64,000 nucleotides of DNA from Psammoneis japonica (Eukaryota): assembly GCA_008632985.1 (NCBI GenBank), contig QPGO01000062.1, positions 124,001-188,000 of the forward strand. Direction: 5' to 3'. A program made the position numbers and the translations under genes. This document shows, one piece after another, positions 6,001-63,045 of the stretch (within the stretch, counting starts at the first letter, position 1; every line of letters begins with the position of its first letter). The notes beneath the pieces were generated by a model. The model ran no database searches, was not told the DNA's origin, and worked only from the letters and a program-made list of their open reading frames with translations.

Positions 6001-6500
6001 GGACTGCAGACGGAGCAGCGGAGGGCACGGCAGAAGAGGTGAGAAATGGGACATCACTTGGCTCTGTAGATAGCATTGCTGAAGGTACGTCACTGGGAGC
6101 GGCACTCGGAGCTGTAGATGGAGTAGTAGAGGGCACCGCAAAAGGGGTGAGAGATGGGACATCACTTGGCTCTGCTGATGGTGTTGTTGAGGGAACGTCA
6201 CTGGGAGACGCACTCAGAACTGTGGATGGCATAGCAGAGGGCGCTTTTGAAGGGGTGAGAGACTGGATGTCACTGGGCTCATTAGATGGCATTGCTGAAG
6301 GAACGTCACTAAGAGTCACACTCGGGACTGTAGACGGAGTAGTAGAGGGAACCGTCGAAGGGTTGAGAGACGGGACATCGCTTGTCTCTGTAGATGGCAT
6401 TGCTGATGGTACGTCATTGGGAGCCTCACTTGGGGCTGTAGATGGAGTAGCAGAGGGCACCCTCGAAGGGGTGAGAGACGGTGTTGTTGAAGGCACGTCA
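1..6500. repeat. Coding tandem repeat: 12-bp PSxx subunits forming 96-bp (32-aa) units, with a higher-order 864-bp period
   Basis: Recurrent 'gagacgggacatcacttggctctg' about every 96 bp. Antisense ORFs 1146-1832 and 2010-2696 translate identically, offset by 864 = 9 x 96. Confidence 0.95.
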
Positions 6501-26369: not shown

Positions 26370-29300
26370 GTGCCACAAAAGTGCCATTTTCACCCAATCC
26401 AGAAAAGACAGTGGAAAATTAAAGTCACACAGGAGCATGGCGAGGGACCAGCGTGCTGCTTGCGACGTGATGCTCAATTTTGCGAGCCAACAGAGCCCAT
26501 CCTTCACCATCATGCCACCAGGATCTGAGCCAAGTGATGATGGATCAATGGACAACACTTGTCTGCAAAGGATCAAAACATTTCAAGCTGTTGAAGCAGG
26601 CAGCTTGGCTGGAGGAGCCATCCAGGCATTCTGGGAGCGGCGCAGCACACTCATCAGGCTGGTGAGATTGCACAATGCCACACAACATGCAGGCGACATC
26701 TCAGCAACACTGCTTCATTGCACTCAGGCACTCTTTTTTGTCTGCATTAAAGCCACACATTCTTTGAATGTTTTTGTCACGAACCAGTTGAAATTTGAGC
26801 TCTGCTGTCTCTTTCCGTGTTGACCCCTTCTTTCCGAGCCTCCCTCAAGCAACACACTGCACCAGGTGATGTCAGAACACCTGTGTGAATGCAATGCATG
26901 TGTGACATGCACCACCTCCACTGCAATCTCTCCCACCAAGAGCCTGCCTCCTCCACCTCTTTCTGGCCCCACTTCTGAAATGTGCAAACACACATTGTGC
27001 AGTTCCTCCCAAGGCCAAGATTGCTTCAAACACATGTGTGCTTGGGCAGGTGATGACATGAGGGAGCCCCTCACCTCTGCCCCCCCACTTTGACCTTGCC
27101 TTCAAGCTTCAAGCCATGCACCTTTCAATTTGGGTCAGCCAGGTTGCCCCCAATCCAGCAGTCTGATTTGGCTGCAGGCATCCATGCTGCACTGCTGTGG
27201 GCTTCTGTGGCTGGCGCCAATCCTTCACCCCTCATGCTCCTGCACAGATGACACCATCATAGACTGCATTGAGTGGTGCTCCACAAGGTTGCGCTGGCTG
27301 CACTTCTCAATCTTTTGGCAGCTGCAGATGCTCCCCTGGGTCAACCTTGCTTCACCTGAGTCCCCCACGCTGCCAGTGACCCAGCACCAGATCTCACCAT
27401 GGAAGTCATTGAACAGTCAACTGACCGGCTGGATCTGCACTCAACCACACTTCCATCTTATCCAGCAGCCCACCCAAGCAATGCGTGCATGCCAAGTCTG
27501 CCCATCCCTCAACTTGGTTGCAGGATTTGGGCCACAAAGCATCCAGGAACAAGGTGTTTGTGCCTTGGGATGCATGTCCGCTGGTGGGGGAAACTCTTCT
27601 TGTTGATTGGCTGGCTTTTCCATGTGCCAAGTCTTGCTGTCATTGAGAATGTTGCACTTGGTTCCTGGGTTGTGCATTCCAACAAAAACTTGAGCCCAGG
27701 CACAAATCTGCAAGAGACCCAGTCATCCTCTTTGCCAGAAAAGGCTTTCATTGTGGTGGGTGGGTGTTGGATCTCATGTGACATCATCTGTCATGACCCT
27801 CGCAAACAGAGCCATCTTGCACCTCCCCAATGCCGGCTGTTTTTCCACCACTGCAGCCTCTCCTGCCAAGAGCCTGCCTCCTCCTGTTTCTGACCCCGCT
27901 CATGAAGTGTGCAAACTTGCATCATTGTTTTGTGCTGCTGCTCCTTTCGAGTCTCTGGAGGCCCCAGGTTGCTTTGCCCACCCAGGTTGGTGATGAGAAA
28001 AGCAAGCTTCTCACCTCCAGGCCTTCCACTTTAACTTTGCTGTCAAGCCCTGTGCCTCAATCCACTTGATTTGGTTGGGGGGGGGGGGGGGGGGGGCAGC
28101 ACTGGTGCCACAATGGTTGTTTGGAGGGCCAACAAACTGATGGTTGATGGATTGATTCAGAGAGGGAGCTGCTGCAGGAGCAGCCCAAAGGGGCAGCAGA
28201 TGAGGGAGGTGGCTGCAGCTGCATTCCAAGTTGTGNCTTCCTCAGATCAACCCTGCTTCATCTGATTGTCATCAAGCAGCTGGCTGCTGCAGATCTTTCT
28301 GCGTGCTTGTGCTCAAACACCACACTTCTTCCATCCAATCCAGCCCACCCAAGATGAGTGTGTCATTGAACAATGCTTCTGAGTCTGCCCATGCAATCAA
28401 TGAACAAGGTGTTTGCCTTGGGGCATGTGCCCACTGGAAAGGTCCTCTTGGCTGACTTTTCCATGCCAAGTTTTTTGCACCCCAGAGTCCTTGGGATGTC
28501 ACGCCACTTGGTTCCCAGGTTGTGCATTGCAACAAAAACCTTCATGCTCTTGAACCCGGGCGTGAATCTGCAAGAGACCTTGTCACACTCTTTGCCAGCA
28601 CTGGCCTTCATTGCCATGAGCAGGTGTCTGATTTTTTTGATGTGTGCTGCAATGACCCCCACAGACAGAGCCAGCTTGCACCCTGCATTGGGCCTGGCCC
28701 CATGGCTGCAGCCACGGCTCCTTTAGAATCAAAGGGTGGATCTGTCACAAGGTGCGCCAGAAGGACATTGAAGTCCATCACAAATCTGTGTGCTTCCAGC
28801 TTGTGTGTGGCATTGCCACAAAAGCTGTGATGTTCTCCTCTGAGCCGAGTGCTTCTCCTCATGTTTTGATGTCCTCTTTGTCACTCTGAGCTTTGATCTT
28901 TCAACACAATTCAGACATGTGCTCCACTCCACTGGCAGGCCTGATGATGCCCCTTCCAGCTGTGTGGTCTTGGCTGCATGCACTGCAGAGGGTGTCTTGC
29001 AGCCACTTGAGCTTGGTCTCTCCCTGGCAGACCCACAGTGCATGAGCTCAAGTGCCTTCATGCAAAGGGCAGACAAGTCCTCCCTGGCTGCGTCAAACTT
29101 GTGGTGGGCAGTGTCTCTTGCTGCATCAAGTGTCAAGGACCTGAACTCCAGTTTGAACAGATCCACAATGCTCCCCCCCCTCCCAACCCTGTGCAGACAC
29201 TTTGGCCCAGGCCACCAACCTGGAGGTTGACCACTGCCTGCAAGAAGAGAGTTGAAGGAGCATCTCCAAGTGCTCACCCAGCAGTTCAATCAGTTCCTTC

Positions 29301-30230
29301 TCAGTGGCTGCATTCTCCTCCCAGAGATCCATGATTGCATGCTCCAGTTCCCTGAGCAGCCTTTCCATGGTGACAAAAAGCTGAGGATCAGGGTGGGTGT
29401 CTTTGACTGCAGTGCACTCCACCTGTGGCTCCTCTCCTGCTGGGTCTCATTGTTGCCTTCATTGCTCACCAAGAGCATCTCTGTGCTCCTCCTTGCCTTG
29501 TGGTGGTGGCTTGTCTCCCACCCAAAGATGAGGTCTTTTGGATGATGTTGGCTGGAGGGAGGTGCTGAAATGCTGCTCTCCACTGCTTGGGTGGTGCACC
29601 AAGCTGGGGCAAGTAATCAGCCACTCCATGTTGGCCCCAGTTGTCCAGTGCTGGTAAAGAGAACACCGCTGGCTTGGTTCCTGTGCTTGTCTCTCACTGG
29701 GCAGCTCCTCCTGATGGCTCAAACTGGCTTGCCAAGTGTTGGACACACAGCAGTTTGGTGCTTGGCTCCAGTGCATGACCATGACTGCGCATCCATTTTT
29801 CACTCCAATCAACAAGCAGCATGAACAGATTTTGCAGCAGCATCATGGTGATGATGCACTGTTGACTGTGTTTGATGGGATCCCACCACAATTTCTTGAC
29901 AAATCAAACATGGCCACACTCACTTCTTCCAAGTGCGGTTGACAATCTTGGTTGAACGGGGAACCAGGTTGGTCCACCCAACTTGCCTTCTTCTCTGCCA
30001 GTGAGCACCAAGATGTCATCAAAAAGTGAAGGCTCTTCTGTGCATGGGAGGCAACATCAATGTGTCAACTGCTGTGCTTCTGTGAGCTGATTCAGAGTGG
30101 TGGCACACCACAGCACAACAGCTTGAGAAGCAACATCTGCTGCCACATTGCTCTTGGTGGAATTGGTGGGCATTTCATGCACGTTTGATCATGCACATTT
30201 GAACACATTTTGGCTGTGTGTTTGACCCCA
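26370..30230. pseudogene. Hypermutated TpA/CpG-depleted tract A; relic of a gene or element with an internally repeated domain
   Basis: About 8 TA dinucleotides in ~3.8 kb by eye, and few CG. Diverged internal repeats 27547-27822 vs 28402-28682 and 26928-26990 vs 27856-27915. G20 run at 28077-28096. Confidence 0.75.
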
Positions 30231-35200: not shown

Positions 35201-35537
35201 GGGGTGGCCACCTACCGTAGGCAGCGTAGGACCGACATCTGAAACGCGTTTGCGCTACACAGTATGGTGGTGTTCCTATTCAAAGCCTCTCTCGGCGAAC
35301 GTGTAGATATCTAGTATGTCTAACTTTTGTAAATGCAAGTCTAATTGTTACACCTTTTGGCTTAACATGGCAATCCAAATATTTCAGTTCCCACTCCAGA
35401 TACGTACCTACGGGCAGCGCAGATAGTATCCTTTTCAAAACAGAGTGCTGGAGATACAGTATATGCACGTACAGTTCAATCTAAGTGATTTCTCTGTGCC
35501 GGTACTCGATCTATAATGTCACACAGTTGCTATTTGT

Positions 35538-37298
35538 CTAATTGATTACTGGATCCCAGACCCAAAAGTTGGCAAGCCACTTTTCACCTTGAATGACGGG
35601 TTTGGACCCGTGTTGGCTTAGATCGGCAACGTTCCCATCTGGCAAGACATTGTAAAACAAAGCCGCCTTTCCTAACCGTGGCGAAACAGAAACACCATCA
35701 TGATGCGTAGTTGACAGCGCACGGGGAAAGACAGTCTCACCACCCTCGTTGCATGTATTGAGATAGAGTAGGAGCGTTGCAAATCGTGTAGGCTGGTGGG
35801 GATGCGTCACGGACGGATAAACAAAGTCATGGTGCGGCGAGTACTCTTCTGACGGACCATAGTGCACCAACTGGATGGATTCCGCAATGGAATGGTGCGT
35901 CGCATCCTCCATGTGCTTGTCAGACGTGTGTTGGAGAAGTCGTTCATCAATCTTGAGGACGTCTGCAGCCCGACGGTAAATCAAGTCGACTATTGGTGAT
36001 GCAGCTCTTTCGATCCACGCATTTGTCGAAGACCTTGTAGTCGGGTCTACGCTGTTCTTGTCAGCTCCAGCATGCAGTGTCGATGGCTTGAGACCTTGCT
36101 GCTTTCCCAACTCAATCAAGTGCTGTGCCTCGTTGGGAGAAAGAAAGTTGTCAATAGTAAAGACTCGTGGCAAGACCGATTCAACCTTGAGTTCTAGCTG
36201 CACCTCCTCGTGATTTATGCCATTTTCGGTCCATACAAAATGAGATTGACCAATGTAGTCGGCAGCGTGCATGCAATGCATAGGCTTTGGTCGAGGAAAG
36301 GTAGAAAGCCACGGCCTTTGAGTCTTGATCATGTAATCCTTGGAGTACGCCAAATTCAAAAGCTGAGCTTGATACTTGTAGTAGTCTTGCTTCGATAGTT
36401 CTTCCGGTATAAAGGAATCAGCAGGTTCATAAACTGTCAGGGCAGAATCCGCAGTCAAGGTCCAGCGTTTCAACGCATGACTTTCATCAGAGACGGGTGA
36501 AACGTAAAATGATTGACCGGGCGTTGTTGCCGTTCCAACGGATTCAAAGGGAGCAATCTCTGCAATCAATCTGGCCGAGTGATCATGACCACCAATACCG
36601 TCCCAATGCAACAAGATGGGTTTGTGGCTTAGATTGATAAACTTGGCAGCAAAGCCTGTAAAACTAGGCGTAACGAGCTCCAGTTTATCGTCGTGTTGGT
36701 TTTGATGTAGCTGAGATGCAGTCGGTGTCTTGTAAGCAAAGGCATTGCCGCTGATTAACGATCTGCTTGTAAGGGATGCAAGTTCCTTCATGCAGACATA
36801 CTCCTTAGATTTTACCGTAAGCTCAACATCATTGTTCTTATCATACTCACCCCGAATATAATCAACGTGATAGTGGTAGTGCAAGGCCGGGATAAGGTCT
36901 AGGGGCACCCTGAAATCCATAACCTCCACATTTTTCTCTGCAGACTCTAGAGTTACGTTCGGACAAAAGAAAATCCCCGCGGTTCGCTTGTACGAATCAA
37001 CGTGTGAATGCCTTCGCTGCTGATTTAACGTGGGTGCAAAGGTAGGAGACGAAGGAAATGCAACATGGCTACTCTCGACAAGCCTCGAATGACTATAAGC
37101 CGCAGCAACAAACGCAACAAGAACGGCAAACATGTGTTGTTTCCAAGCGTTCACAATAACCTCTTGAAACCATGATTCCTCTTCGTCCTCAAAATCATTT
37201 TCATCATCTTCTTCTTCTTCTTTCTCTTTTTGAGACGAAGGCATGTGGTCGACGTTTTCCTTTACCGTCGAATCGCCTTGTCGTTCTTTGGACGTCAT
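35538..37298 (-). CDS. Prolyl 4-hydroxylase-like 2OG-Fe(II) dioxygenase with an N-terminal membrane anchor
   Basis: Motifs PRVFTIDNFLS, RSSTNAW, ESIQLVHY..EEYSPHHDF, RFATLLLYLN..EGGETVFP, HGSKPVIQGEKWLANFWVW. Start placed at MTSKE (37298) because the longer ORF overlaps the bestrophin. Confidence 0.9.
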   Translation of the reverse strand: MTSKERQGDSTVKENVDHMPSSQKEKEEEEDDENDFEDEEESWFQEVIVNAWKQHMFAVLVAFVAAAYSHSRLVESSHVAFPSSPTFAPTLNQQRRHSHVDSYKRTAGIFFCPNVTLESAEKNVEVMDFRVPLDLIPALHYHYHVDYIRGEYDKNNDVELTVKSKEYVCMKELASLTSRSLISGNAFAYKTPTASQLHQNQHDDKLELVTPSFTGFAAKFINLSHKPILLHWDGIGGHDHSARLIAEIAPFESVGTATTPGQSFYVSPVSDESHALKRWTLTADSALTVYEPADSFIPEELSKQDYYKYQAQLLNLAYSKDYMIKTQRPWLSTFPRPKPMHCMHAADYIGQSHFVWTENGINHEEVQLELKVESVLPRVFTIDNFLSPNEAQHLIELGKQQGLKPSTLHAGADKNSVDPTTRSSTNAWIERAASPIVDLIYRRAADVLKIDERLLQHTSDKHMEDATHHSIAESIQLVHYGPSEEYSPHHDFVYPSVTHPHQPTRFATLLLYLNTCNEGGETVFPRALSTTHHDGVSVSPRLGKAALFYNVLPDGNVADLSQHGSKPVIQGEKWLANFWVWDPVIN

Positions 37299-37496
37299 TG
37301 TCGATTGTCGGCTCAATGAATGAGGCAGACAACATACAGTAATACGTATCCACGAATTTGAATATTTATTTTTTGAAAAAAATGTCAACGTTTTCTGAAA
37401 AGTCTGTCCGTCAATCAGGTCACCGCGTCTCACAATTTCAAAATTCACGAAAGACACAACGAACGAAACAGAGTAGGGCCTAGGCCTACATTCACA

Positions 37497-38996
37497 ATGG
37501 AGGACCAGTTGAACAAAAAAGGCAATGCACACAACCCTACCATGCGTCTCACAAAGGTGGCAAAGAAGCTTATGGGGTCGGACGATGAACTGTCGTTTGA
37601 AGAACTCAAAAGGATAGAGCAGAGACGACGGGCCATTCTCCATCGCAAAGATTTCAAGTTTTTTCGAATTCTTTCGTTTTGGGACGGCACGTGTCTACAG
37701 GTCTTGGCGTTTGATCCACTCATGTGGTTTACAATGCTGATCTACATTTGTGTCCGCATCCAATCTCGCGTTGGATTGTCGGACTTTGTTTCTGATTTGG
37801 CGGGAGCAGGAGGCGACATTTCCGTGATTGCAGCCTTTTTGAGCTTCTTTTTGGTTTTCTTTGTCGTCAATGCAAACAATCGTTTCTCTACTTTGTACTT
37901 GTTCTCTATGAAGTGTAAAGGAAGTGTCTTCAATGCGGCGTCTGTCGCTAAAGTGGCTTTGCCCAAGACGCATGCTCAGAGACTAGTCCGGCACATGAGT
38001 GGCGCTGTAAGTTTCTCGTGAGATCGACACTAGTCGCTGAATTTTACCTTTCTTTGCTAACCTAACGTGAATGTCGATTCTCTACAGCACATTGCTGGAC
38101 ATGTTGGGTTGTCGGATGCTCACACATCCACCAACTTTTTCGAAAAGCTCAACCAAACAAATGTGTTCTTGACCCATGAAGAATGCACACGAATCTGTGA
38201 AATCGACATGGATGCAGGAGGATCATCCCATCGCGAATTGATCACTTGGTGCATGCAAGAAGTCAAGATGCATTAGACGAGGACATCATTGGCCTTCGCA
38301 CTGCGGCACAACTTCGTGACGAAATTCTAAACCTCCGTTCCGCCATGGGCGCACTCTTCAACTGCAACGATCAACCCATTTCCTTTTTCTATCTTCATTT
38401 CATCTGCCTTCTGTCGGCTCTTTATTTGCCTCTCTTTGCCGTGTCATTGGGCTTTGAGGCGGTCACAGGAAATGATGTCCATTGGACGGCGGATCTCGTC
38501 AATGGTCTCATTGTGTTTCTGCAAGCAGTCTTTGTCATTGGTTTGCGAATTCTTGGTCGTGAGTGAACTGCTCTAGAGGGTGATAAAAAAGTTGCTGCAG
38601 CACACAAGGTTTCTCACTCGAAATGTTTTTCTTGCTGTCACAGAGAAGCCAATGGATCCATGTGGTGACGATGTTGAGGACTTGAGTGTCATGCATTACG
38701 TCGGTTTTACTTGGCTCATGAGCAATCGCATCCTTCTCAGCAAGAAACCGCCACGACGCGATGAACAGGTAGAAGAATGCATTTGTCGGCAACGAAGAAC
38801 TCTTGGAGACGCATGGGAAGACGAGCCCAAGCTCTCTGTTGTTGGGAATGATGCGGAAGTCGAAGAACCAATGGTGGAAGAAACTGCGGGGGGTTGTGCT
38901 GTGCAATGGACAACATGTTTGCGGTGCATCTGTTCTTCAAATCCTTTCATGACGGTAATTCCATCAAGCAAGCATTGTGTTCCCACCGTTGACTAA
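37497..38996 (+). pseudogene. Bestrophin-family channel gene, partly hypermutated (probable pseudogene)
   Basis: Motifs FLSFFLVFFV..NNRF, QPISFFYLHF, DPCGDDVEDL. Introns 38007-38087 and 38559-38643. Frameshift at ~38268. His/Cys occur where Tyr is expected. Confidence 0.75.
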
Positions 38997-39192
38997 CCTC
39001 ATACAGTGCTGTTGAAGAGATGCACTGTAACACTTCTCAAGACACTTCTACTCATCTCATATTTCAAATACGGTAATAAGATGTACGGATGCAAACTGTC
39101 TCCATTTGCCAGTGCGCGTTTATTTATGGTAGGCCTAGGCGTAAGAACGATGTGTGCACTATTTTTTGAGGGTTTTATGATCTCGCTCCTTA

Positions 39193-39630
39193 AGGGTGGG
39201 AAATCCCTTGTGTTTTCGACATATATTTGCAAAAAGCATGAAAAATAACTAATATTTTAATCATTTATGACGCAAATATGGAAAAAATATACCGACGCGT
39301 TCTGCGCTCACCGTGCAAACAACACGACAATGGCCGAAATGCCGTTCGTTCTCGAAAACTGACAGGGGTAGCCTCCAAATTTTTTCACAGTATATCGCAT
39401 TTGATATGGTCAACAAACTTATGAAGAAAGTTGGAGGCCGCCACACCTACATTGCGTTCAACGAACGGCATTTCGGCCATTGTCGTGTTGTTTGCACGGT
39501 GAGCTCAGCATTCGCTCTCCAGCCTTTTGAACGTTTTTCCATGAATTGCACGTATTTGCGAAAAACACTGTCTTATTTTAGCCGTTTTTCGTTTGAAATT
39601 TCTAAAATTCACCAAGGGGGTTCCCAGACC
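39193..39630. mobile_element. Palindromic foldback/MITE-like element
   Basis: Perfect 45-bp inverted repeat 39306-39350 / 39460-39504. Imperfect inner arms 39371-39387 / 39422-39438. Degenerate outer arms. Non-coding, between convergent genes. Confidence 0.65.
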
Positions 39631-39648
39631 ACAGATACAATAACATGT

Positions 39649-40740
39649 TCATTGAGGATTATCTTGAAAGGCAAGTATGGTTTCATTCTTGGGCTTGACG
39701 GGATTCACAGTGATTCTTTCTAGAGGCTCATCCATTCCTCCCGCGACTCCCAGACGTAGCAAATTCTCGTGATTTAGGAAGTTAGGCTCGTAGCTCCAAG
39801 TCAGTGTATCACCATTTATGTAAGCTATTGGCACCTCTCTCGTCATGTCATTGTCGATAAAGGTTGAGAGATTATCAAAGAACAATGCTTGTTTGTCCAT
39901 TCCGGACGCATGGCCAAACATGACAACACAGTCAGCATCCGCGTCGTCGTGTTGGGTATGGTCGTTTATGAGATTCAGTGTCCAAATAATTTGATCCGTG
40001 AGAACCTTGGACCAGTTTCTTGGTACCACTGTGCCTCCAGGCAAGTTCAATCCAATCCACAATGTTCGTTTGTGTACAAACGTAAATGTTTCTTCCCTTC
40101 CTGCCAACGACGAAACTTCAAAAGGATTATTCCACCGTTTGTGCAACAAACTAAAGACTGACTTCCATCTGGACAGAGCCCTCCTAGGATTATTACAGGC
40201 ACTGTATTCATTGGGTCCCACTATAATAAACACTGGCACTGGCGACCTGAGAAGAGTTTGTTGAATGGCAGTGTAGTAATCCAAGGTGCATGGCGAATTG
40301 CTAGACTTGAAGTTACCAAGGTGTATCAAAAACTCCGCTTCCTTGGGAATGCTTTGCACTTTCAGAGCAAGAGCAGTATCGGCCTTGTCCTTGATGTATG
40401 GTACGTTAGCCATGGCATAAAATACCGTTGTGAGCGCATCGCTCCCCGTTTCAGGAATGATGTGTGTAGGTTCGGTCGATGGAGTTCTTGTTGGCGAAGC
40501 AGACGGAATAATATTCACTGTAGGAGACAATATAATAGGAGATATTGTAGGAGAACTGGAGGGAAACCTTGTGGTAGGGTATCTTGTGGAGTCAGAATGG
40601 TTGCTGTTGACGTCATCTTCCTGTCCCTCATTGTTCAGGAAAAGTGGCAAAACGATGACGGCCGACACACCAACAAGCATGAAGCAAACGGCCGCAGTGA
40701 CCAGCTTGCGTCGCGAGGATAATGTTAACAACTTTCCCAT
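39649..40740 (-). CDS. Membrane-anchored calcineurin-like metallophosphoesterase-fold protein (metal ligands substituted)
   Basis: N-terminal TM, P/S/T linker, then FYAMANVPY, FLIHLGNFK, PVFIIVGPNEY, VVMFGHA, YINGDT. Confidence 0.7.
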   Translation of the reverse strand: MGKLLTLSSRRKLVTAAVCFMLVGVSAVIVLPLFLNNEGQEDDVNSNHSDSTRYPTTRFPSSSPTISPIILSPTVNIIPSASPTRTPSTEPTHIIPETGSDALTTVFYAMANVPYIKDKADTALALKVQSIPKEAEFLIHLGNFKSSNSPCTLDYYTAIQQTLLRSPVPVFIIVGPNEYSACNNPRRALSRWKSVFSLLHKRWNNPFEVSSLAGREETFTFVHKRTLWIGLNLPGGTVVPRNWSKVLTDQIIWTLNLINDHTQHDDADADCVVMFGHASGMDKQALFFDNLSTFIDNDMTREVPIAYINGDTLTWSYEPNFLNHENLLRLGVAGGMDEPLERITVNPVKPKNETILAFQDNPQ

Positions 40741-41019
40741 GGTGTGTCCAAAGCAATGATAACAATAAAAATAATAATGGTGCCAAAGGAAAAAGCATGT
40801 TGTGGCGGTTTTGTGCTTTTTGAATTTTTCCAGAAGAGTGAGCAACCGTCAGGGTAATTTTATTGCATATTCGCATTTGCATTTTTTCATATATTTTTGT
40901 GTTCTACGAAGCCGTAGACTTTCGTTTGATTCCGTTATGTCAAACTGTACGACCGGCGCGACCGGATGCATTCTTTGTCGACCTCTCCGACTGCTGTGCA
41001 AACAACTCAACTGGGAACT

Positions 41020-44000
41020 GGGAATGAATGACAGCTGACTGCCTTTTGACTCATGTGGCACTCTGCTTTCCAACACTGCCTGAGCACAGAAGAACTGCAT
41101 TCATTCAACATTTGTTTCAACTGTCAAACTTCTTTTTGTCCTTCCAACACACCTGAACCTTTCACATGGAAGAAATGTGAGCCTTCTTTTTTGTCCCTTT
41201 TCGCACCACTGTTGTTGCGCTGGGTGTGGGTGTGGTGTGGGGTGGGGAGATGAGTCAAAAAATGAAAGACACACAATTTTTTTTAACTGGTGCAAGCTCA
41301 GTTGGCAGTTCTCCCACAGAGAGACTGAACGGACAGAGAAGAACTGGTGCTGCAAAAAGGCTCTAAAAGGCAGAAACAGGGTTCTTTTCCCCAAGTTGTT
41401 GTGAAAACCCTGGGGCAGTTGCTGTCCTCCAGTCACCAAACTTTTGGTCATGTGGACTTTTTGGGACACCCACACCTGGAGTGGAGAGAGCAATCTTTTG
41501 TGATCAACAAGATGTCAACTGCTTTGGTTGGTGGCAGTTGGCTGGCTTTGCTGTTCTTTGAATGGGGCAGGAGCCACTGGCCAAAGCACCAGCCACAAGA
41601 AGTGCTCCTGCAGTGGCAGCAGCTGTGGCTCTCACTTGCCAAGGCTTCATCAGCTTTGACTGAGTTCCTCTCAGCTGTCTTGTGGCACTGTTTTTTCATG
41701 TGCTCTGCATTTTGATCTAACCCAGTCTGCCTGCAAGTCTGAGTTTGTCACCCGCTTGCAGCACATTTTTTTCATGTGCTCAGCATTTTGATCTGATCCA
41801 GTTGGCCTGGCTGAAAGGCCAAGTTTGGCACCTCCATGTCTGTGTGTCTGTCATTTTTGTGTCAATGCATGGATGTTGTTGCTTGTCGCTGGTGCTCCAC
41901 TCTCTCAAAAGATTGCAAAAAGGGCTCTGCACAACACAGCAGAATTTGCTTCACAGTGTGATTGCATTTTTTGTCATGACTGTGAGAATCATCATCCATC
42001 CACTGCCTCTTGATTTCTTGTCCTTGGTCCCAAACAAGACCAAAAACCAACAAAACACCACCCTCCAATCCATGCCATTCTTGTTGTTTCATTCAGACCA
42101 CCTGTCACACTCATGGTGATTGGGGTGCAAATTTGGGATGCAACTTGGGGGTGCAAAAATGCACATTGCATGAACTCACACCCAAAAATTGCAGATTGTT
42201 TTGTGCAGGTGTGGGAATTTAAAACCACCCTTCTGAAACAAAAAGATGTTTTCTTCTGACTTTGAAAAGCAGCTGGCAGGACAATGGTGCATCATCAAAA
42301 ACTCATTGTCTGCAACCCACAAGCAACCTCACGCAATGTGCCAAAGAGTTGTCTGTCATGAGTTTGCAGTTTGACCAAAGGTGCTGGAAACTTCTTTGCC
42401 GTTGCTGTGGGGCAACAAAAGCACAGGCACAATGGCCATGCTGCCAACAACAAAAAGCTTTGCTGAATTTTGCAGCCACTGATGACAATTCCTTCTGACC
42501 AGTGGTTGGAGAGAAGCAGAGCAAGGATGAGATGTGTTTTCCCAACCACTGTGGAGTGCAGATGCACAACAGTTGATTGATTTTGTGGTTGCAGGATGCC
42601 TCTGCTTCAACAAATCACAGTTGGGGCTTTTCAATGAAGTGCTGCTGCTGATGTGCACTGCAAGTGTTGCAGCATTCAACTGGAAAAGTCACCAGCCACA
42701 GGATCATTTCCTGATGGCGCCAGTGGCAGAAAGTGAGCAGCTGTCAACACTGCCATGTCCCAGCGTGCCTGCTCAGGAGCTTGTGGCTGCATTTGTTTCA
42801 CATGCACTGGTGCAACAAGAGGTGCTTGCACCATCACACATTTTGACAACATTTGCAGCTCAAAGCTGAAGGTGAAATTGTCCTGTGAGCTTGCATCCTT
42901 GACTCAGTGGTGAGAAATTGACAACACACTCACACCTCAGAATCTCAAATTAAAAAGGAGCACCTCCTGGCACCACTGATGAGCCTCCACACTGCAATCA
43001 GCCACCTGGTGGAATCTGAGTGTTGCAGTCCAGCAGTCATGGTGTCTCACACAGACACCAACAAGCAGCAGCAGTGCCAAAGTGGGGCATCATGTGGGCT
43101 GAGAACCTGCCTCACAATGAGAAAGAGAGCCCAAACCTGCCTGCTGTTGAGCATGTGATTTTTTCTTGGCACTCTTCCTTGATCAACTCATTTGGTGCTT
43201 GCTTTGTCCTCAATGCTGACATGCACTGGCTCCAAGTGGGAGACCTTGACATGCCAGAGTGGGGCAATTTTGGATGAAAACAGACCACCCAATGCAAAAA
43301 TTGCAAAAGGCTCTGCACAACAAAAATTGCTTCAAAAGCACCTTTGCAGAAAACAGTCAATGCAAAAAAGCAGCTGCTGATTGCAAGACAAGATTTGCAC
43401 TGCAATGTTCCTTGGTTGCTGCAGAATGCTTCTGTTTGTTTTTTCCACAATCTTGTGTGCACTGCAAAGCTGCTGTCATTTTTTGGCATCAGGCAAGCAC
43501 CTCAAATGCAGCCATTGTCTTCACTGGTGGGCAACTGTTGCCTGAACTCATTGAAAAAGAGCGCGCAACTTTTAAAAGCAAGTGATGCTCATCCAGAAAC
43601 TGGACCTCCAGACAGGTTTGACCAAGTGAAACAGAGAGAAAGGAAAGATGCAGACAAAACCAAAAATGTGGGTGCAACCCCATGACACAAAGACAAAGCA
43701 TGCAAGAAGGCATCCAACCAAGGCAACACCTTGTTTTCTGCAAGAACAATGGCACAGACTGCATTCTTGTTGCATGTGGTGGGTGCAATGGCACAACTGT
43801 TGTTGGGTGTTTTTGGTCAGAAGACATCAAAATTTGACCAAAAAATTAGACCAAAAAATGCTGGGGATGAATGAAAAATGTGCACAACCATGACACAAAG
43901 CTGAGGCACAAGGCATTTGAGGCAGAAACTCATGGCACAAGAGCAACAACACACTTTCTGTGTTTGTTGCAATGAATCTGGTGGTGCTGTTGTTGCCAGG

Positions 44001-45480
44001 AATTGTTGGCCACATGCTCAGATGTTAAAATTGACATGAACAACACACAACTCAAGTCAATCTCTCTTGTTGTTTTGTGACAGAAAATCAAGTCATGAGG
44101 AGGCTCCCAAGCCAAATCTGTGAAACACAAAAATGCAGTCTCACAGACCAGCTGTGGCACAGCCACCTCAATGATGCAACCAACTTCTCTTCAAGTTTTG
44201 TGCCTCAATGATGCAGCCTTGCTGTCAAAAAAGAGCTGTGGCTGTTGCCTTGCTTTTTCTTGTCAAATGTTGGTGTTTGAAACTTTTCTCTCAAGCTCAT
44301 CTCAAAATGCTGCCTGCCAACCCACTTCCACCAGCAACATTCAATTTCCACCCAATCTTCAACAAACCAACCAGCAACAAAGATTTGTTGGAAGTCACCC
44401 ATGTGTGTGGGCAACTTCAAGAGGAGATGAAAACAACAAAACAGCTGTGCTGGATGCAGCCAGAATTTCCATGCTGGACCAGTCTGCACCCTCTCCACAA
44501 TGACTTGGTGATTTGGGGGTCCTGCCCTCCTGCAAATGTCTTTGGTCTCTTTGCATGACTGTTGCAGGCCAGTGAGAAGAACATCTGGCATGTCAGCTGA
44601 TGCCACTCTGAAGAAGAGAAGCTCCATTTCTTCTCAGCAATGTTGCAAAGGAGCTCTGTGCAGCATCTTTTTTCAGCGCCAGTTTGCATTGTCAATGGAG
44701 TGTTTGGCAGCTTCATCATCCTGAGCTGCTGTGTGCGGTGTCTTCATTTGCATCAACAACAACACCAGCAATCTCTTGTGCTGCTGTGAGCCCTGGCTTG
44801 ACTGTGACATCTTTCACACAGTGGTGATTGGTTGGTTAGAGTGTGTGTCTGACGGCAGCAAGTTCATTTGAAGTGCAGACAATGCATGGACGCAAAGAAG
44901 AAAAGCCGCTCCAAACCATTCGAACATGGATTTGGAATGAGTTCAATGATCTGATCTCAGATCCAGTCACCAGTGCTGGCTCCAATCTCCTGACCATTGC
45001 ATTTTTTGGTTTCCTGCTTTGTCCCATGACAAAGCACACTGCATGTGCCACATCATGTGGCCCAGCTGCTGCGACACCATGGGGTGCAAGAAAATCAAGT
45101 GTCGCGGTTGCTGCAATTGTTGCTTTGTTGAGGATGCCAAAAGAAATCATTTTGAGTCAATTCACTGTGTTGGTTGAAAAAGTACAAGGCTTCCAGAGCA
45201 ATGAGTTTGTGATGCAAGAGTGACAACATTGGCCAGCTCAATGTGGCCGATCTGATGGTGGCGCAGCTTTTTGAGCTGTTTGTTGACTGCTTGGACACAC
45301 CATTGCTCCTTGCTGACAATCATTGCATTGTTGATGAAGCAATCACCTTGCTTGGAAATCAAAATTCCTGGATCAAAAGTGACAACGTGCGGCTCAAGTC
45401 TCCGCTCGCCAGTGTGTGCTGTGTCAATTGCGAGCTGTGAGGATGACCACATGCAGAGTCTGCCGAATCAATTGGCACTG
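41020..45480. pseudogene. Hypermutated TpA/CpG-depleted tract B (likely decayed mobile element)
   Basis: About 9 TA in 41040-45180, all within TTA/TAA. Tyr-free His/Cys/Gln-rich broken ORFs. Grades into normal composition after ~45500. Confidence 0.7.
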
Positions 45481-47429
45481 CCCTTGTTGGTCTGAGCCAA
45501 CCGGTGGCATCCAAAGAACAAGTGGGTGGATGTGTTGGAACTGCCAGCGCTGAACCATTGCTTGGAGACGCTGGAGATGGGAGAGATGCACTCCCAACTG
45601 GGAGGAAGACGGATTGGCGTCGCAGAAATGACAATCTTGAAATTCTTGGGAAACCCGGAGTTACTTTGCTGTCGAGCCGTTCGGATTTATACTGGAACTT
45701 GTGTAGAATTTGATAAGGACGCAATTCCATTTTGATAAGGACAAGTAGAAATGCACGGTCCATTTGGGTACATATTTGATAAGGACGCCTGAGCAGGAAT
45801 CCTCTTCATTTCCTTCATTCCACTCAAACGCTCCCGATTTGGCATACCGCACCGTAAGAAACGGCCATGCACATAACACTTTGATGCATCTCGCCATGGC
45901 ATACATCGTGGGGTAGACGTATTTTTCATGGGTGATCTCTTTCTATCGTTGTTATAAAGAGGTTGATGCATTGGTTTGGTTTCATGGGGCGCTTTGGTTG
46001 CGACACACGGTGCAAACGGTTGCATGCTTCGACTCGTAGCTCGATTACGGCACGGTACGGGTAACACCTGAATGGTCGACAACATTGCGGCGGTAAGTTC
46101 TTTCTATATTTTCTCGTTTTATGTCGTTTTCTTAGTCACCAAAGATCATTGTTGTGTTTTGTTAGAGCTTGAAAAGTGGATGGATCGTCTCTTACGGTCG
46201 ATTATGGTATCTGTTATGTTGGCATGTTTTTCAAGCCGTTGGCGCCGCCAGAGCATATCCGTTTATGAGCTTTATGCTTCATCCCACTCTACATCCTTTG
46301 GTTCATCTATTATATATATTATGATGCATTCGTGACTCGCTTGATATCCTTCTTGGGGGCTTGGTCGGTGCATAATAGCGGCATGTCATTTTTCGGGCGT
46401 GTCAATTTCTCAAAAGTGCATGCCGTGGGAACAAAACGACGCGATGGAGCCTGGAGGACACTTACGATGTTGGTATTTGTCAGACAGTCTTATCATAGTC
46501 AAAAAAAGGTAAGCCTGTGAGTATGTTGTAATTGTTTGAGTATTTGACTCGTTTTGACGAAACTTGCATACCTCACGAGCCTTTTTCTGTGCGTCTCGTT
46601 CATGCGTGCAGGTGTCTGGTCTAAAATGACCCTTTCCACCTACCCTTCAACCGTATTATCATCAATGTCTAAGACATGATATTGTCCATGTTAGTTTGGG
46701 AGATCTTGGTGGTGTAACTACGACTCTAGGCTTTGCAATGGGTAAAATGGGGAGGTTGAGGCTTGTGTTGGCGGGCTCATTGCCTCCTCTTGAATGCGCG
46801 GATGCCACGAACCGCTGATGGTACTTGGGGGCATAAAAATTGGTAAGGCGACTCAGCTCCACCTTTAAAAGTTGCCCTAGTGAGTGTACTGTGATATGTA
46901 CAGTAACCCCAATGGATTGTTATTGTGTACGTTGTTCCACTCATATTTTCATTTTGCCTGTCATTTTTTCAGCATGGATATCTGGGACTGCGAGCGCTTA
47001 AAGTGGCATTTTTTTTTCCATGCCAATACTCTACAAGACTCAAGTCCTTTGATAATAGTTGTTCCTTTAGGGAATCAGATTGTGGAGCTTTCCGCATCTG
47101 GTCGGGTCTAAAGAGGAAATGAGGTGGAGCCGGCTTTCAAAAGTGAATGAGTTTTGGCTTGTCGTGCGGTTGCATCTCAACGGTAGCGTTCGCAGTGGGC
47201 GTGTAAATTTTCCGTGATCAATGAAGCAGTAGATAATGTATTAAGATAGATCATGGCATGCTGCTGTTCTTTAGAGTGTTTGCTGCTAGCCAGCTAGAGA
47301 GCTGCGACTACTACGTTGGAAGTGCTAATCGTCTGGGCGTCGGGCGGGCGCACACACTGTCGATGCATCTCTCCCTCTCTCCTCCTCCTCTTTTGCCTCT
47401 TCTTTTTTTCATAAACTCGGAGCTGCCAT

Positions 47430-48860
47430 CTTGTTGCTTGTTGCTTGGTCACTCACAGGTTGTTGGTGCTTGTTTCTGGAAAGAGATCAGGTGTCGCACT
47501 CCACCCGTGCAAGAACTGCAAAGTGTGAGCTGAAAGGAATGCATGAGACTGGCATTTTGTTTGAAGCCTCAAGATGGATCATCGCTCAATCAAATGCCCA
47601 AGGTCAGAGGCAGCCACAACAGTTGGCAAGCAGGTGTTTTCCAACTTCCAACATTGTTGAATGTGCCAACATGTTGCCTCAGTTTCTCTTGCATCCTTTG
47701 CATCTGTCGCTTCAATCTCTGGAACCAGCCGGAGGAAATTGGAGCTGAGCCTGCCAAGCCTGCAAAACCAAAAACAAAGCAGAAAAAGTCAAACTCTGCA
47801 AAGATGAACAAGAACAGCAACAAAGAGAAAACGTCCTCATCTTCAAGAGCATCACAAGAAGCATCGAGAGGGAATGTCATGCCTTGTCTAAAACTTCACT
47901 TTTTGTCTGTTCTGATGCTTCATCTCCTCTCTGCACCTTGCATCCATGTTCAGCATGGCAACAGAGCTGAAGGGCAAGCAATGGCTCAGGGCTGATGTGC
48001 TGAGCACACTTGATTGCATGGAATGGGTTTGTTTTGAAGCTTTCAAATGGTCCACCTTTCGCGGCAATGCAGTGTCATCTCATGTTGAGCACTGCCTTGC
48101 TGCTTCGCATGGAAGAGCTTGTGCTCATGGAGAAAAGACTCGACAGCTCCTGGCGGCTCCTTGACCTTGGAAATTGGCGGTGAAGCCCAAAATTCCAATG
48201 GCACTTTGCCACAGCAATCTTCACACATCCACAATGGGGCTGGCAGCAATGTTCACAACAGCGGCACTGCTTCAGTGTCCAACAGTGAGAATGGATGAGG
48301 AAACGGTGGTCGACCAAAGCACTCCCACAAAGATGTGGTGGCATCTGGCAAATCTGAAGAGATCGCTGTTGTTGTGTCAACACTGGCAAAAGCACATGCA
48401 CAGCAATTGGTGATGGTGGCGTGTTGAGTTGCATCCTCTTATGGATGAGAAAATGGAGTGCTGTTGTCCAAAGACATTTTGATTGCACACCAAGCTCGTT
48501 CGGCGGCTGGCTTGGATCCAGGTTTCTTCTTGCAATCGAGGCCGGCATCGACTGCTGACATTGTGGCTGATGATTCTCAAGCCTTGGCAGCAGCTCTGAA
48601 TGCAGTCAACTGTTACAAACTGGTGAGGAATGCTGCCCTTGCAGCACAAGAGGAGTGCAACCAACACCTGGAAAGGAGCTTTTGTTGCCCATTTTTGGGT
48701 GTTTTCTCTCACATCTCTTGCCATTGACACGCTTGTCACAGCAAAATACGGATGTCATGCATTGACATTTTTGGCAGGAAAAGGTTTGGTGGCAAGGTCA
48801 AACATTGGTTGTTGCCGCATCATGGTTGGTTTGTTGTTTCCGTCTTTTCTCGCAGCAGCA
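47430..48860 (+). pseudogene. Hypermutated tract containing a plus-strand gene relic
   Basis: ORFs 47946-48164 and 48174-48413 are in the same frame, separated by a TGA (possibly from CGA). TA nearly absent. Flanked by related ~90-bp direct repeats. Confidence 0.55.
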
Positions 48861-49118
48861 TGAATGTCGTAAAACGTCTGGCCGTCGTACGTACGAATTG
48901 AACGTATGGCGTTTTCTCCTCTCCTTTTCCTCTTTTTTTTTTTCATAAAATCGGAGCTACCTACCGGTACCAAAACTGCCTGAGCAAATCCATTCCAACA
49001 CATCATTGACATCTCAACTCTCAATTGTAAAACCTCCTTCGTGTTCTGCCCACACACCTGAACCTTTTACATGGAAGAAAGATGGTGCTTGCGTTTCACT
49101 GCAGACAGATGAGTCAAC

Positions 49119-51746
49119 ATGAAAGACGGTCAACAAGACGTGTCAATGATCATGCGGACCACGTCTGATTCTTTCGAGGAGAACATGGAAAGAGCAAACG
49201 CTGATGTGCATGCCAGTGAACCAGACAATGGCAACGAATGTTCAACTTCTTCTGATTTGAACAAAATTATTGAGGATGAAAGTGACAACGAAAGCGATGC
49301 CGAGCGGGCGTCGACAACAACAAAACTGCCTGCTTCTGGTGCATCTAAAAAGCAGAAGGCTTCCAACACCGAAAGTGTGGTTGCACCGCGAGGCTTGTTA
49401 CAGGAGCCTGGAGGCGTAGCAGTAACCCCAGGGACCACATCAAGTCCAACAACAAGCACAACCAAGAAATCAGATTCTTACAAGAAAGCATCCCAAAAAC
49501 AGACACCAAGAGGGTGGGCGTTTCGTCCGTCCTCACAAGTCTCAGTTCCTGGTGCGGTTGCGGTAGTTCCTGGGACGACGCACGACAGTGGCAACAACCT
49601 TCGAGCAAACTCGGACTCAATCTTGATGCAAAAGCACCTTCACAATCGTCGTGCGAATCTCAGACAAGAACATAAACAAGCCACCTCATTTCCCTTCAGT
49701 CTCCGGATAGTTTTTCAACGGGCTCTGTTCACGAAACATCTCTTGTAGTTTCTACGACAGATGGGGGCCCAGATGGGTTGGAACCTCCGAGACTTCTGGC
49801 CGAAAAGCATTCTCTTGGATATTATCGGAAGAATAGTCGTGAGCCAACTAGTCAAGAACGAAGCGTTTCCAGGTTTGAGCCAGCTGCACAAGGCAGTTTT
49901 GTGTCTACGGATGGGGCAACTCAGCTCGTCAGTAGCCCATCAATGGATGCTAGGTCTTTGTCAGGAGGCGTGCAATCCACTCAAGAAAGCGAACCGGGGA
50001 CGTTAGAGTATCAAAGGCCGACGTCCTTGAGATCATCCCTCCGATCTAGTTTAACTCGCCGTACGTCTTTGGAACAGGATGAACGTAAAGATGCTACTCT
50101 TGTGAATGCCACACTTGTTGAAGAAAGGGATGACTCACCAGTGTATGCTGCTGAAGCGGTCCCAGAAGAACGCATCCGACGAAGGCGTAGAAGAGTGCGC
50201 GCTGCCGGTGTAATCTTGATCGGGGCCCTCATCACTACGATTGTTCTCGTGACGACAAAACCTAGAAGAGGCGACGACGATGGAAGCAATGGTTCAAAAT
50301 GCCAAATCCCCCTGGAGGAACAAAAGATCACTACGCAGTGTGCATGCCAAGGCGAAATATCTATGATTTCGCGTGATGCTCTAGAATTTGGTGATGTCAT
50401 GCTGAACCTGCTTGTCGATAGCGAGGTTCTGCCTTTTAATTTCAGAGAGAACTTCAATGAAACCTCATGCCTCCCGGAGAATCAGGCTCTATGGTGGATT
50501 GCTGATCCAAATAATGTTGACATTCCCAGAGACTCATTTGAACAAGTTGTATTGAATCGAAAGTTTGAACATCAGATTATTCAACGCTACGTTCTTGGTT
50601 TGCTATATCTATCCATGGGGGGCAAACAATGGACTAGGCAAGCGAATTGGCTCAGCACTGCACCTGCTTGTACGTGGTTTGGACTTGTTTGCACGGAAGC
50701 GTCACGTTTGGCGCTGTTGGAACTACCTGCCAATGAATTAAGTGGTAGCATTCCAATCCAAATTGGGAATCTTTTACATCTGCAGAGCATTAATTTTTCG
50801 GGGAACCAACAATTGACAGGTAGTCTCCCATCGGAAGTTTCGAAGATTAGAGGCTTGCGTAAGTGCAAGCGAAGTGCTGTTATTCTGTCTCAATTTACCG
50901 TTTTTCTACCGCTTACGACCAATTTAATCGGTGTCTTGCCTACCCGCTCACATCGTAGGGAGCCTCAAGATTAAAAACACCGGACTCAGCGGAGAAATTC
51001 CAGTGTCGTTGAAGGAGAACGAGGTTCTCAGTACGTACTTGGGCCATTGTGTTCTCTTCGTTTTGATTGCCCATGTATGTCAAACTTTTGTGACTGTTAC
51101 TGATTGAATGCTCTGCTCTCTCTAGCAACGATTACGTTGTTCAATAACTCACTCTCTGGAGTGTTTCCTTCCGAGGTGGCTCAGCTGCCACTACTTCGTA
51201 AGTATCGATTGAGCAAATTGCCTTAATATGCTGTCGATTGTGCCTCACACTTACTAGTGCTGCATTCCTGTTTGTGTTTCACAATACGCAGAAATCTTTG
51301 ACGTTGCAAACAACCAGTTCACCGGGTCGCTGCCTACTGAAATTGGAAAGATGACGAATCTCGGTATTTTGGGCATTGACAATAACGATTTCACGGGAGA
51401 AATACCAAGTGAGATTGGCAACGCCCAGAGCCTTCAAATTATCAAAGCGACGAACAATCGATTCGGTGGTACGATACCCAATGAAGTGGGTAATTTAAAG
51501 TTTCTAGGAGATTTGGAGCTAATGGGCAATAATTTTACGGGTCAAATTCCAAGCAGCTTTGCGAACCTCACAAGACTTTCCCTCATAAGCATATCAACAA
51601 ATCTAGCTCAAGGATTTGTTGCCAAGACACTTTGCGATACTCTTGACATGCTTGAAGCAATTTTTCTGGACTGCAACGATACACAATCGTTCTGCTCTTG
51701 CTGCTTTTGCAAAGAGTCAGAATTAGGCAGTTTCACTTCATTCTAA
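49119..51746 (+). CDS. Type II membrane LRR receptor-like protein (copy 1)
   Basis: Disordered N-terminus with PGGVAV/PGAVAV, RRRRR then TM, QRYVLGLLY..W..NWLS..C.WFG..C cap, plant-type LxxNxLSGxIP LRRs. Frameshift at ~49695. Introns 50859-50958, 51031-51125, 51198-51291. Confidence 0.85.
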
Positions 51747-51812: not shown

Positions 51813-52230
51813 CACACCGTGGCATGCGTGTTTTGAGCAAGAGCTGCTGCTGGCATCAGAGTGCCGTTGTTGCCCAGCAAACACCAGCTGCCCATGTAAA
51901 TTTTGGCGAGGGTAGGGCGATTGTTGCCCAATTGCTGACAGACTCTTTCTCAAGCACCATGATGCATGAGCTTGCCCAAAAGACAGAATGACATCATTGG
52001 ATCACATGAATTTCACAACAGCAAACATGGTGAGAGAAACACTTGTTTTGATTGATGGAGCAGGAGTGGTTCATTGCAAACAGAGAAAGGAGAGATGCTG
52101 GATGTGAACCCAAGCAGCACAAATTGCTGTGTGTTGACAACAGAGAGGTGGTCGGGAACAGTGAGACACTTGAAAGACATGCAGGCATCATGTGCACAAA
52201 GAGAGCAATCAAAGTTCCTCACCAAGAACT
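51813..52230 (-). pseudogene. Truncated, hypermutated paralog of the 5' part and upstream region of the RNI-like LRR gene at 60217-61221
   Basis: Colinear with ~61010-61420, e.g. caagcaccatgatgcatgagcttgcccaaaag (51951) vs caagcgccgtgatgaacgaacttgcctaaaag (61144). Confidence 0.85.
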
Positions 52231-52239
52231 GTCTTGTTG

Positions 52240-61744: not shown

Positions 61745-63045
61745 CACCAATTCGATCACTCAAAGTGTTGGCAAGGATGCTGACATGGAGTGATCAACTG
61801 AAGAAGAAATGCAAAAAGAAGCAGGACTGAGATTTCCAAGTGCTTCAGACGGCGCTGGATGCGCCATGCTCTTGCTGGCGACAAAGCATGTCATCGGTGA
61901 TTTGGCTTGCTGGCAACATTGGGTGATTCATCTGGGTTCCTGCTGCTCTTCTCTCTGTCCAAGACCTGTTGCTGACAACCACATCTGTGTGCTGTTTCTT
62001 GCCTGATTGGCGTTGGCGAAGGAGGGGAGCACACAGAGCAGAGAGTGAGAAAAAGCGCTGCCTTGGCAAAGGATGTGTCAAGTGCACTGTCTTCCACAAA
62101 CAGGATGGGCTGAAGACTGCTCTGTCACAACCACCTCTGACTCCCCTCTTCTGGAGGCATGCCGCCTTTGCTTCTTTGTCCCTTGTGTCGACGTCGTCCA
62201 GCGCCAAGCACAGCTGGCATGGTGCTGTCTCAGGAGCCTGACTTGAGCATCAGCATTCTCCATGGAAGGCTGCATTGGCTGTGTCAAAGACATTCTCAGA
62301 GGGCTGGCTTGCTCAGTTGTTAGAGCTTTTGCAGGTTTTTCTGAAATGGCGACATTGCAGGCAGCGGGAACAGCAGCACCAGGGATGCTGGGCTTGGACC
62401 TTCACTTGAGGCCAGCACTGGCAACCCACCTCATGGCTGCACCCAGTGCCATTTTCAGTTTGAGCAAGAACACTCTGCAGATGTTTGTTTGAACAATTTG
62501 GGAAGCAGCAGGCACACCCAGATTGTTGTCCATGATGAGCGATCGCTTGTTGTGACTGTGGAGACAACACCCAGCACCCCCTCCTCCAGACAAGCAATCT
62601 CAGCTTGATCATCACATTGGGAGAATCAGGCAATTTTCATTTTCCAACCAATGCCTGCTGTGCACATGGCTTCAGGATGCAGAACAGGATAGTTGGGTGC
62701 AGAGCCCCCATTGTTGCCAGCTGCAGCTGTCAAGAGGAGGGTGCCATTGTCACAGACTTTCTTGTGCTGTTTCAGAATGATTTGTTGTGATCCTCTCCAC
62801 CAAGACTCACACTTTTGACATTGGCTCTCGCGCCCACCATTCACAGCACAGCTTTCAAGAGCATCAAGCATGCAAGACTCAGCTCCTTCCCCCCTTTTCC
62901 AATGTGGAATTTGAGTGGTTTCACATTGCCCATGACACCAGCAATGCCTTGTGATTCTTGCCACCAATGGCGTCTGTTGAGACAGACAGGAAAAAGAACA
63001 GCCTTCTTGCTCTTTGAAAAGGTGCAGAGTCCAACAGAGGCATTC
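61745..63045. pseudogene. Hypermutated TpA/CpG-depleted tract D
   Basis: Only about 2 TA in ~1.3 kb, reduced CG, and broken Tyr-free ORFs. Confidence 0.7.

Follow-up and report, generated by a model that had tools for sequence, protein, structure and literature searches.

How part of a native, single-copy gene can be stripped of the dinucleotide TA, while the genes on either side keep theirs and the gene itself keeps most of its CG, is the question raised by a bestrophin locus of the diatom Psammoneis japonica. The locus lies in a stretch of 64,000 nucleotides (contig QPGO01000062.1 of assembly GCA_008632985.1), referred to here as the window. A preliminary description had presented it as a host gene in mid-erosion, with apparent Tyr to His or Cys and Leu to Pro changes through TA loss. 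We consider it likely that hypermutation in this genome, which is aimed at a certain class of DNA, has recently come to include the 3' part, about 0.9 kb, of a dispensable bestrophin paralog present in a single copy. In this part of the gene a local, two-stranded and flank-sensitive process that turns TpA into TpG or CpA has nearly saturated its favoured sites. The features of the locus are as follows.

35541..37259, minus strand: left neighbour, a 2OG-Fe(II) oxygenase gene (PF13640, E 9e-15), divergent and unconverted (TA o/e 0.56)
37497..38996, plus strand: bestrophin gene with two introns, from the ATG at 37497 to the stop ending at 38996
37497..38006, plus strand: exon 1, TA near normal with conversion at the 3' end only; weak Pfam match to PF01062 (E 0.02)
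38007..38087, plus strand: intron 1 (GT...AG), six TA kept, none in RTAY, the most susceptible context
38088..38558, plus strand: exon 2, strongly converted, with a 1-base gap at 38263 in the assembly
38559..38643, plus strand: intron 2 (GT...AG), two TA remaining
38644..38906, plus strand: exon 3 to the family C-terminus CAVQ, with Pro at 38649 and Cys at 38661 in a Ca2+-clasp-like loop
38907..38909, plus strand: TGG directly after C-A-V-Q, the probable former TAG stop
38907..38996, plus strand: read-through of 29 codons into what was probably 3' UTR, ending at TAA
38997..39190: spacer between the gene and the MITE-like element, 194 nt, TA-rich (15 TA, o/e 0.93)
39191..39627: MITE-like element with short terminal inverted repeats, a left-end TTAA and an internal 49-nt inverted repeat; multi-copy
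39652..40740, minus strand: right neighbour ORF, convergent, no Pfam match, unconverted (TA o/e 0.65, 15 RTAY)
41001..45500: closest island in which TA and CG are both fully erased, 2 kb off with unconverted DNA between

The view of this locus as an ordinary host bestrophin gene is upheld by introns shared with its paralogs, by a sister ortholog described below, and by proteins bearing PF01062, which match the gene at E 7e-44; its own pieces stay under the Pfam cut-off for that family (E 0.02 and 0.013). The position of intron 1 is common to the paralogs L002 and L004, and splicing out intron 2 yields GQKPMDPC, matching GQKMMDPY of the ortholog P0008. The gene starts at 37497, upstream of the 37950 first proposed, and its 3' end at the stop of 38996 stands. 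The named homologs are mostly diatom proteins. Between the homolog P0001 and human BEST1 the match has an E of 9e-5 and puts DPYG on the human NPFG, on which DPxG of the window gene also aligns. Membership of the bestrophin family (PF01062; human BEST1) is given by this homology and the clasp motif, and anion-channel function is predicted. The encoded protein is like the family in its overall alignment and its [ND]P[FY]GxD clasp loop, and it belongs to an algal subfamily in which one clade ends in C-x-x-Q; it differs from the family by Cys for the aromatic residue, Pro for Leu/Met and the 29-residue extension.

TA is lost from one part of the gene only. In the 742 nt of exons 2 and 3 up to the old stop there are 7 TA, and the matching exons of three paralogs have 99 in 2310 nt (p 2.4e-6); exon 1 holds 12 in 510 nt, against 34 in 1065 nt of two paralogs (p 0.43). 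CG is largely kept, as had been claimed, with 37 in the 742 nt of exons 2 and 3 against 81 in 1500 nt of two paralogs (p 0.76). TA o/e is 0.16 across 38088-38912, versus 0.56, 0.65 and 0.93 in the left neighbour, the right neighbour and the spacer; in exon 2 it is 0.12, with a CG o/e of 0.85. The changes are two-stranded, since Tyr is replaced by His (through CA) as well as by Cys (through TG). On the sense strand the inferred hits include more T>C than A>G, in numbers too small for a claim of strand bias.

The flanks of the surviving sites follow a rule. The gene has no RTAY against 11, 8 and 13 in three paralogs, 5 TA in mixed contexts against 18, 20 and 20, and 2 YTAR against 1, 2 and 6. 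The same order of survival, RTAY < mixed < YTAR, holds genome-wide in the TA-poor bins of a sample of 718 bins of 500 nt, taken from 36 stretches chosen by fixed coordinates; there, surviving TA are enriched for TTAA, CTAA and CTAG, and ATAC and ATAT are almost absent. A split of surviving sites by TTA/TAA also fits the gene (2 vs 39 susceptible, p 3e-5), and the RTAY/mixed/YTAR split fits the genome sample better. Five inferred hits (38121, 38229, 38480, 38649 and 38907) lie in the disfavoured strand context, which saturation can explain and which weakens any fine motif claim. On both strands the change is A>G within TpA, its flank preference is that of the erased transposon islands, and the genes to the left and right of the patch are untouched.

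In three blocks of the window (about 27001-30000, 41001-45500 and 52001-57000) TA and CG are nearly absent and CA and TG are doubled; the gene lies in none of them, and leakage from the island at 41001-45500 was ruled out by the 2 kb of normal DNA in between. Across the 36 sampled 10-kb stretches and the window, the bestrophin gene is the one isolated patch that is poor in TA and normal in CG, a weak figure given that the search thresholds were set to include it. The 77 ORF pieces used for comparison were pre-filtered to normal ORFs and form no independent null.

Several other features of the window were recorded. Further TA-poor stretches lie at 47001-50000, where CG is partly lost, and at 62001-63000. 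On the minus strand of 1-8000 a 7983-nt frame is open; it abounds in Ser/Pro/Thr repeats, is normal in TA and CG, and has long open frames opposite it. A perfect inverted pair of 12-mers around a TAGGCCTA core brackets the gene (37478-37489, 7 nt before the ATG, and 39129-39140, about 130 nt after the stop). Two of the three genome-wide occurrences of this 12-mer are those at the gene, where no target duplication was seen, and the core also occurs just after the stop of paralog L004; in 4.7 kb, chance alone should produce an inverted pair of this length.

The nearest candidate trigger named in the preliminary description was the palindromic element behind the gene. It is about 440 nt long and non-coding; its 84 matches in the genome include some two dozen places where it is nearly full-length, and TTAA flanks intact copies on both sides (L007, for example), the right end of the local copy being damaged. 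Its short length, lack of coding capacity, terminal inverted repeats, target duplication and many copies are those of a MITE. The family (39191-39627 and L006-L024) records TA loss copy by copy, even in the TTAA flanks (TCAA, TTGA), and some copies form head-to-head clusters on C32.

Such an element could trigger conversion if silencing spread from it into the gene, or if antisense RNA arising via the convergent right neighbour ran across its hairpin and marked the overlap with the 3' part of the bestrophin transcript. The converted part is the MITE-proximal end of the gene, with conversion fading towards the promoter, and the stop of the right neighbour lies 25 nt from the element. Of 60 bins flanking MITE copies (counted without L009, L011, L014 and L018), 42 are low in TA, compared with 316 of 718 TA-poor bins (about 44%) in the genome sample; this enrichment, however, is explained by many flanks being repeats themselves. 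The local copy retains 17 of its 20 TA sites, which places it among the least converted copies, and the spacer between it and the gene is TA-rich. Among ORFs within about 150 nt of a MITE copy, the right neighbour (TA o/e 0.65), a Fic ORF (0.63) and an alpha/beta-hydrolase ORF (0.59) are normal, whereas the fourth, an ankyrin ORF (L007 2102-2899, C73) about 150 nt from another little-converted copy, has a TA o/e of 0.29, one RTAY and normal CG, and is possibly a second host gene under conversion. The element is insufficient as a trigger, and the pattern does not match a simple spread of silencing. A route by way of RNA across its hairpin might operate, and overall we judge it unlikely that the element set off the conversion.

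Loss of TA with CG kept is a common early state in this genome. In the genome sample, 69 of the 718 bins are low in TA and normal in CG, and 4 show the reverse. The MITE family was compared through the 19 copies that match the local one best, a choice biased to less converted copies, with L014 and L018 left out as near-duplicates of L013 and L017 and with ancestral TA and CG sites called from the same alignment as the counts. The 13 more converted copies retain 25% of their TA sites and 68% of their CG sites, the five least converted 86% and 91%, some copies are down to 1 of 20 TA while 20 of 27 CG remain, and the log-loss ratio of TA to CG is about 4.4 (18 copies). The multi-kb loci L036, L037, L047 and L059-L061, with long frames, low TA and normal CG, some of them sharing sequence, are probably young retrotransposons in this early state. 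For the bestrophin gene, CpG-type changes comprise two gene-specific amino-acid changes and one difference from a second version of the locus, so that CpG decay seems to have begun and may only lag. It had been proposed that TA conversion acts ahead of CG decay or independently of it; the bins and the roughly fourfold ratio in the MITE copies bear out the first, and the CpG-type changes in this gene suggest a lag rather than the second.

The same targeting could be combined with a different chemistry, namely error-prone resynthesis in the repair of deaminated methyl-C, which would make TA loss dependent on CpG methylation. Polymerase eta-like error-prone synthesis produces A>G at WA. TA and CG are lost in the same islands, and in the window the gene carries one A>G within AA, at 37999, and a GGT at the conserved Asn codon at 38703, all of which suit resynthesis. 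Near-total TA loss with CpG intact, as in the bins and MITE copies above, does not suit it, nor does the undepleted AA of the window (o/e 1.13). In addition, the A/T to G/C hits described in the available part of a preprint on Bigelowiella natans all fall on TpA (10.64898/2026.01.13.699255). We give resynthesis little credence as the source of the TA changes.

At the protein level, residues were compared in an alignment with 124 homologs, many of them partial and hence with fewer chances of Tyr changes, and the direction of change was read off protein alignments rather than a DNA ancestor. All four codons quoted in the preliminary description (CAC 37992, CAT 38100, CCA 38649 and TGT 38661) are in place. 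The His at 37992 faces Tyr in 74 and His in 12 of 99 homologs, that at 38100 faces Tyr in 95 of 101 and His in none, and that at 38121 faces Tyr in 101 of 103; the Cys at 38363 faces Tyr in 65 of 121 and Cys in none. At 38661, where an aromatic residue was rightly expected, the window gene has Cys and the 123 homologs have Tyr (92), Phe (28) or, in one case, Cys. When columns with at least 50% Tyr are scored by leave-one-out, the window gene has five changes to His or Cys, and the homologs have none (99 proteins), one (23) or two (2). Two further His codons, at 38229 (Tyr 33, His 4% of 110) and at 38480 (Tyr 42, His 35/123, with His also in paralog L004), are weak sites in the family as a whole. 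P0008, however, has Tyr at both, as it has at 38363 and 38661, and thus at all four of the proposed Tyr sites within its span.

At 38649 no homolog has Pro (0%), and Met stands in 80% of them, P0008 included, with Leu in some; a change from CTA to CCA is a plausible reading in which the CTA ancestor is inferred. Exon 2 also has Ala in place of Val at 38306, and the gene carries some radical non-TA changes. The available part of a study of human BEST1 describes F298 and L294 as Ca2+-clasp residues, with lower current in F298A and L294A (PMC6591409). Orthologs carrying His, Cys and Pro at the same positions would have contradicted the idea of conversion, and the alignment contained no such pattern.

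The C-terminus points the same way. A terminal C-x-x-Q is found in 13 of the 124 homologs, including P0008 (CIVQ), and in paralog L002, and the window gene reads C-A-V-Q, then TGG at 38907, then 29 more codons. TGG is most likely a converted TAG stop codon, which is the simplest reading of this arrangement. The C-x-x-Q end is presumably a CaaX-type prenylation signal, and read-through would destroy this CaaX-like end of the channel. Conversion has created no new stop codons in the gene. With conserved Tyr residues, the clasp aromatic, Leu/Met and the terminal C-x-x-Q lost, the channel is probably dead or dying; four other paralog types remain. The claim that TA conversion can damage an ordinary, intron-bearing host gene therefore holds for the conserved Tyr residues, and probably for the stop codon. 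Gene death by this route escapes annotation, since frames remain open and stop codons are removed.

A further explanation is that the gene is a long-dead paralog drifting under a genome-wide bias from A/T to G/C. A protein search of the assembly found six bestrophin-family loci. The closest protein, P0008, is about 70% identical, covers the last 210 residues of the gene and is its sister at 100/99 in the tree, while paralog L002 groups with other proteins at 100/97; the window gene is therefore an old paralog with its own ortholog. Its branch is long (0.44 vs 0.14 for the ortholog), the frame is shifted in the assembly, and the radical non-TA changes would also befit a pseudogene. The 17 gene-specific changes relative to the ortholog, however, comprise five single TA changes, the Pro, two of CpG type and nine others, and the nine others equal the nine specific to the ortholog, which argues that the gene is not long dead; the relative rate of 17 vs 9 gives p 0.17. 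At conserved columns other than Tyr it has 10 rare residues in 129, too few for a place among the top 25 of the 117 rows, and TA is kept in exon 1, the spacer and the neighbours. We regard long-standing death as very improbable, and from the comparison with its ortholog the gene was apparently ordinary until lately.

A second copy does not account for the patch either. The 3' end of the gene is unique in the assembly, where the best other DNA matches are 67-78% identical and no near-identical second copy was found, the assembly being possibly incomplete. An unedited allele or haplotig was found neither in the assembly nor among contigs of the public DNA run X1 with at least 84% likeness, contigs being prone to drop variants. 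The further runs X2 and X3 did not cover the locus. Near-identical locus pairs, probably both haplotypes assembled, exist elsewhere in the assembly (C182/C381 and C512/C166), with no such pair for the bestrophin gene.

X1 supplies a second version of the locus, contained in one contig at depth 59. It differs from the window by five bases and one indel, all at 37939-39043, inside or just behind the gene, and by nothing in 35300-37938; this clustering of six differences in 1.1 kb against none in 2.6 kb upstream has a p of about 0.001 to 0.007, with bounds chosen afterwards. Three of the base differences are of the TA/CA type: X1 has CA for TA at 37984, in a protected YTAR context (CTA 37983 to CCA, Leu to Pro), and at 38956 in the read-through part, and the window has CA for TA at 39043 in the spacer. 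A fourth is of CpG type (37939, TG in X1 and CG in the window), and the fifth is the A>G at 37999, outside TpA, which gives the window Ser for a conserved Asn at codon 37998. The 1-base gap at 38263 shifts the frame of the window and is absent from X1, where 444 codons are open; the frameshift was accordingly set aside as proof of a pseudogene.

The derived changes number three in each version, and read plainly, both versions gained hits after splitting. Differences at TA/CA within the gene between the two versions imply that the hypermutation process is recent. X1 may be the source of the window itself, and a collapsed contig mixes alleles, sub-clones and assembly errors, so the window-only changes (37999, 38263 and 39043) could be errors, the X1-only ones less easily. 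That the substitutions at large are lineage-specific functional changes or assembly errors is scarcely tenable, in spite of the naturally occurring His at 37992 and 38480: the X1 contig carries all His, Cys, Pro and Trp codons of the window gene, which are therefore not assembly errors, and TA loss also hits silent and non-coding positions under a flank rule unrelated to protein function.

For the favoured explanation, recent entry of the 3' part into the hypermutated class, the following mechanism may be proposed. The patch would carry a silencing mark, either chromatin or CpG methylation, that recruits a mutator, and the divergent promoter shared with the 2OG-oxygenase gene would keep exon 1 open. 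The mutator could be a TadA/ADAT-type deaminase acting on DNA adenine, with the resulting inosine read as G, a suggestion whose chances we take to be about evenly balanced. Ordinary CpG decay would follow several times more slowly. The genome has five PF14437 matches, by our own reading TadA-like, ADAT2-like, two dCMP deaminases and a deaminase-2OG fusion. This family was also detected in 12 of 14 control genomes, and the homologs found are of housekeeping types; TadA- and ADAT2-like genes occur in nearly all genomes, so their presence here proves nothing. In L067 319-1791 (C79), a domain resembling TadA/cytidine deaminases is joined to a DIOX_N/2OG-Fe(II) oxygenase.

A single-copy native gene that is hit, a boundary within that gene and fresh differences between two versions together argue against homology pairing as the targeting rule. 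More tentatively, and with rather more doubt than confidence, we suggest that the TpA mutator does not detect foreign DNA or repeats but is a natural editor of adenine guided by a chromatin mark, which would take it to silenced DNA of any kind, including single-copy genes of the host; it could be confined to part of a gene and would be fast enough to leave differing hits in two versions of one clonal-looking locus. If so, it would provide a routine path to stop-free pseudogenes, and gene-body patches would be ready reporters for both mark and enzyme. A 0.9-kb patch between two untouched genes makes the targeting rule testable.

Among known systems, DNMT5-dependent CG methylation of diatom transposons (PMC9998398, in its available part), together with passive decay of methyl-C, accounts for the CG to TG/CA part of the erasure in the islands and is probably also behind the few CpG changes in the bestrophin gene. 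It cannot change TA, and its effect lags TA loss about fourfold in the MITE copies.

RIP leaks into adjacent single-copy genes, according to the accessible part of PMC3105345, and the likeness lies in a mutator that is directed at repeats and spills over into a host gene present once. The chemistry of RIP is the opposite: its C>T changes give rise to TA and to stop codons, whereas the change here is T:A to C:G and removes TA and a stop codon. It also needs a duplicate or contiguity with a mutated repeat; here there is no duplicate, the adjacent MITE and spacer are nearly unconverted, and the island is 2 kb off.

For adenine-directed DNA hypermutation we found one published precedent, on integrated viral DNA of an unrelated alga, and nothing on TpA hypermutation in diatoms beyond that preprint, in a search that mostly left subscription journals outside its coverage. 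In its available part, Mettrop et al. (bioRxiv 10.64898/2026.01.13.699255) describe TpA-restricted hypermutation of integrated viral DNA in Bigelowiella natans, measured directly on silent single-copy viral DNA, at about 1000 times the background rate in mutation-accumulation lines; ADAT2 is proposed there for an enzyme given as unidentified. The likeness extends to TpA changing to TpG/CpA on both strands, to local action on single-copy DNA with no second copy needed, and to sharp contrast with neighbouring DNA, here the drop in TA o/e at the patch.

The differences, as far as that part of the preprint goes, are several. The target in B. natans is viral DNA, whereas here, in a diatom, a native gene is hit that contains introns and has an ortholog, with repeats also targeted genome-wide. 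Here the patch spans less than 1 kb and has a boundary within the gene, TA-poor bins make up about 44% of the sample with CpG decay following, and one A>G (37999) lies outside TpA, with three of the five X1 base differences at TA/CA. TpA-poor coding sequences of B. natans include host-type Pfam domains, and the supplements may list host genes that were hit; the available text reports these domains without damage to a named gene. What is new at the present locus is the intragenic boundary, the ortholog evidence of a recently ordinary gene, the differences between two versions and the mostly negative test of the nearest repeat.
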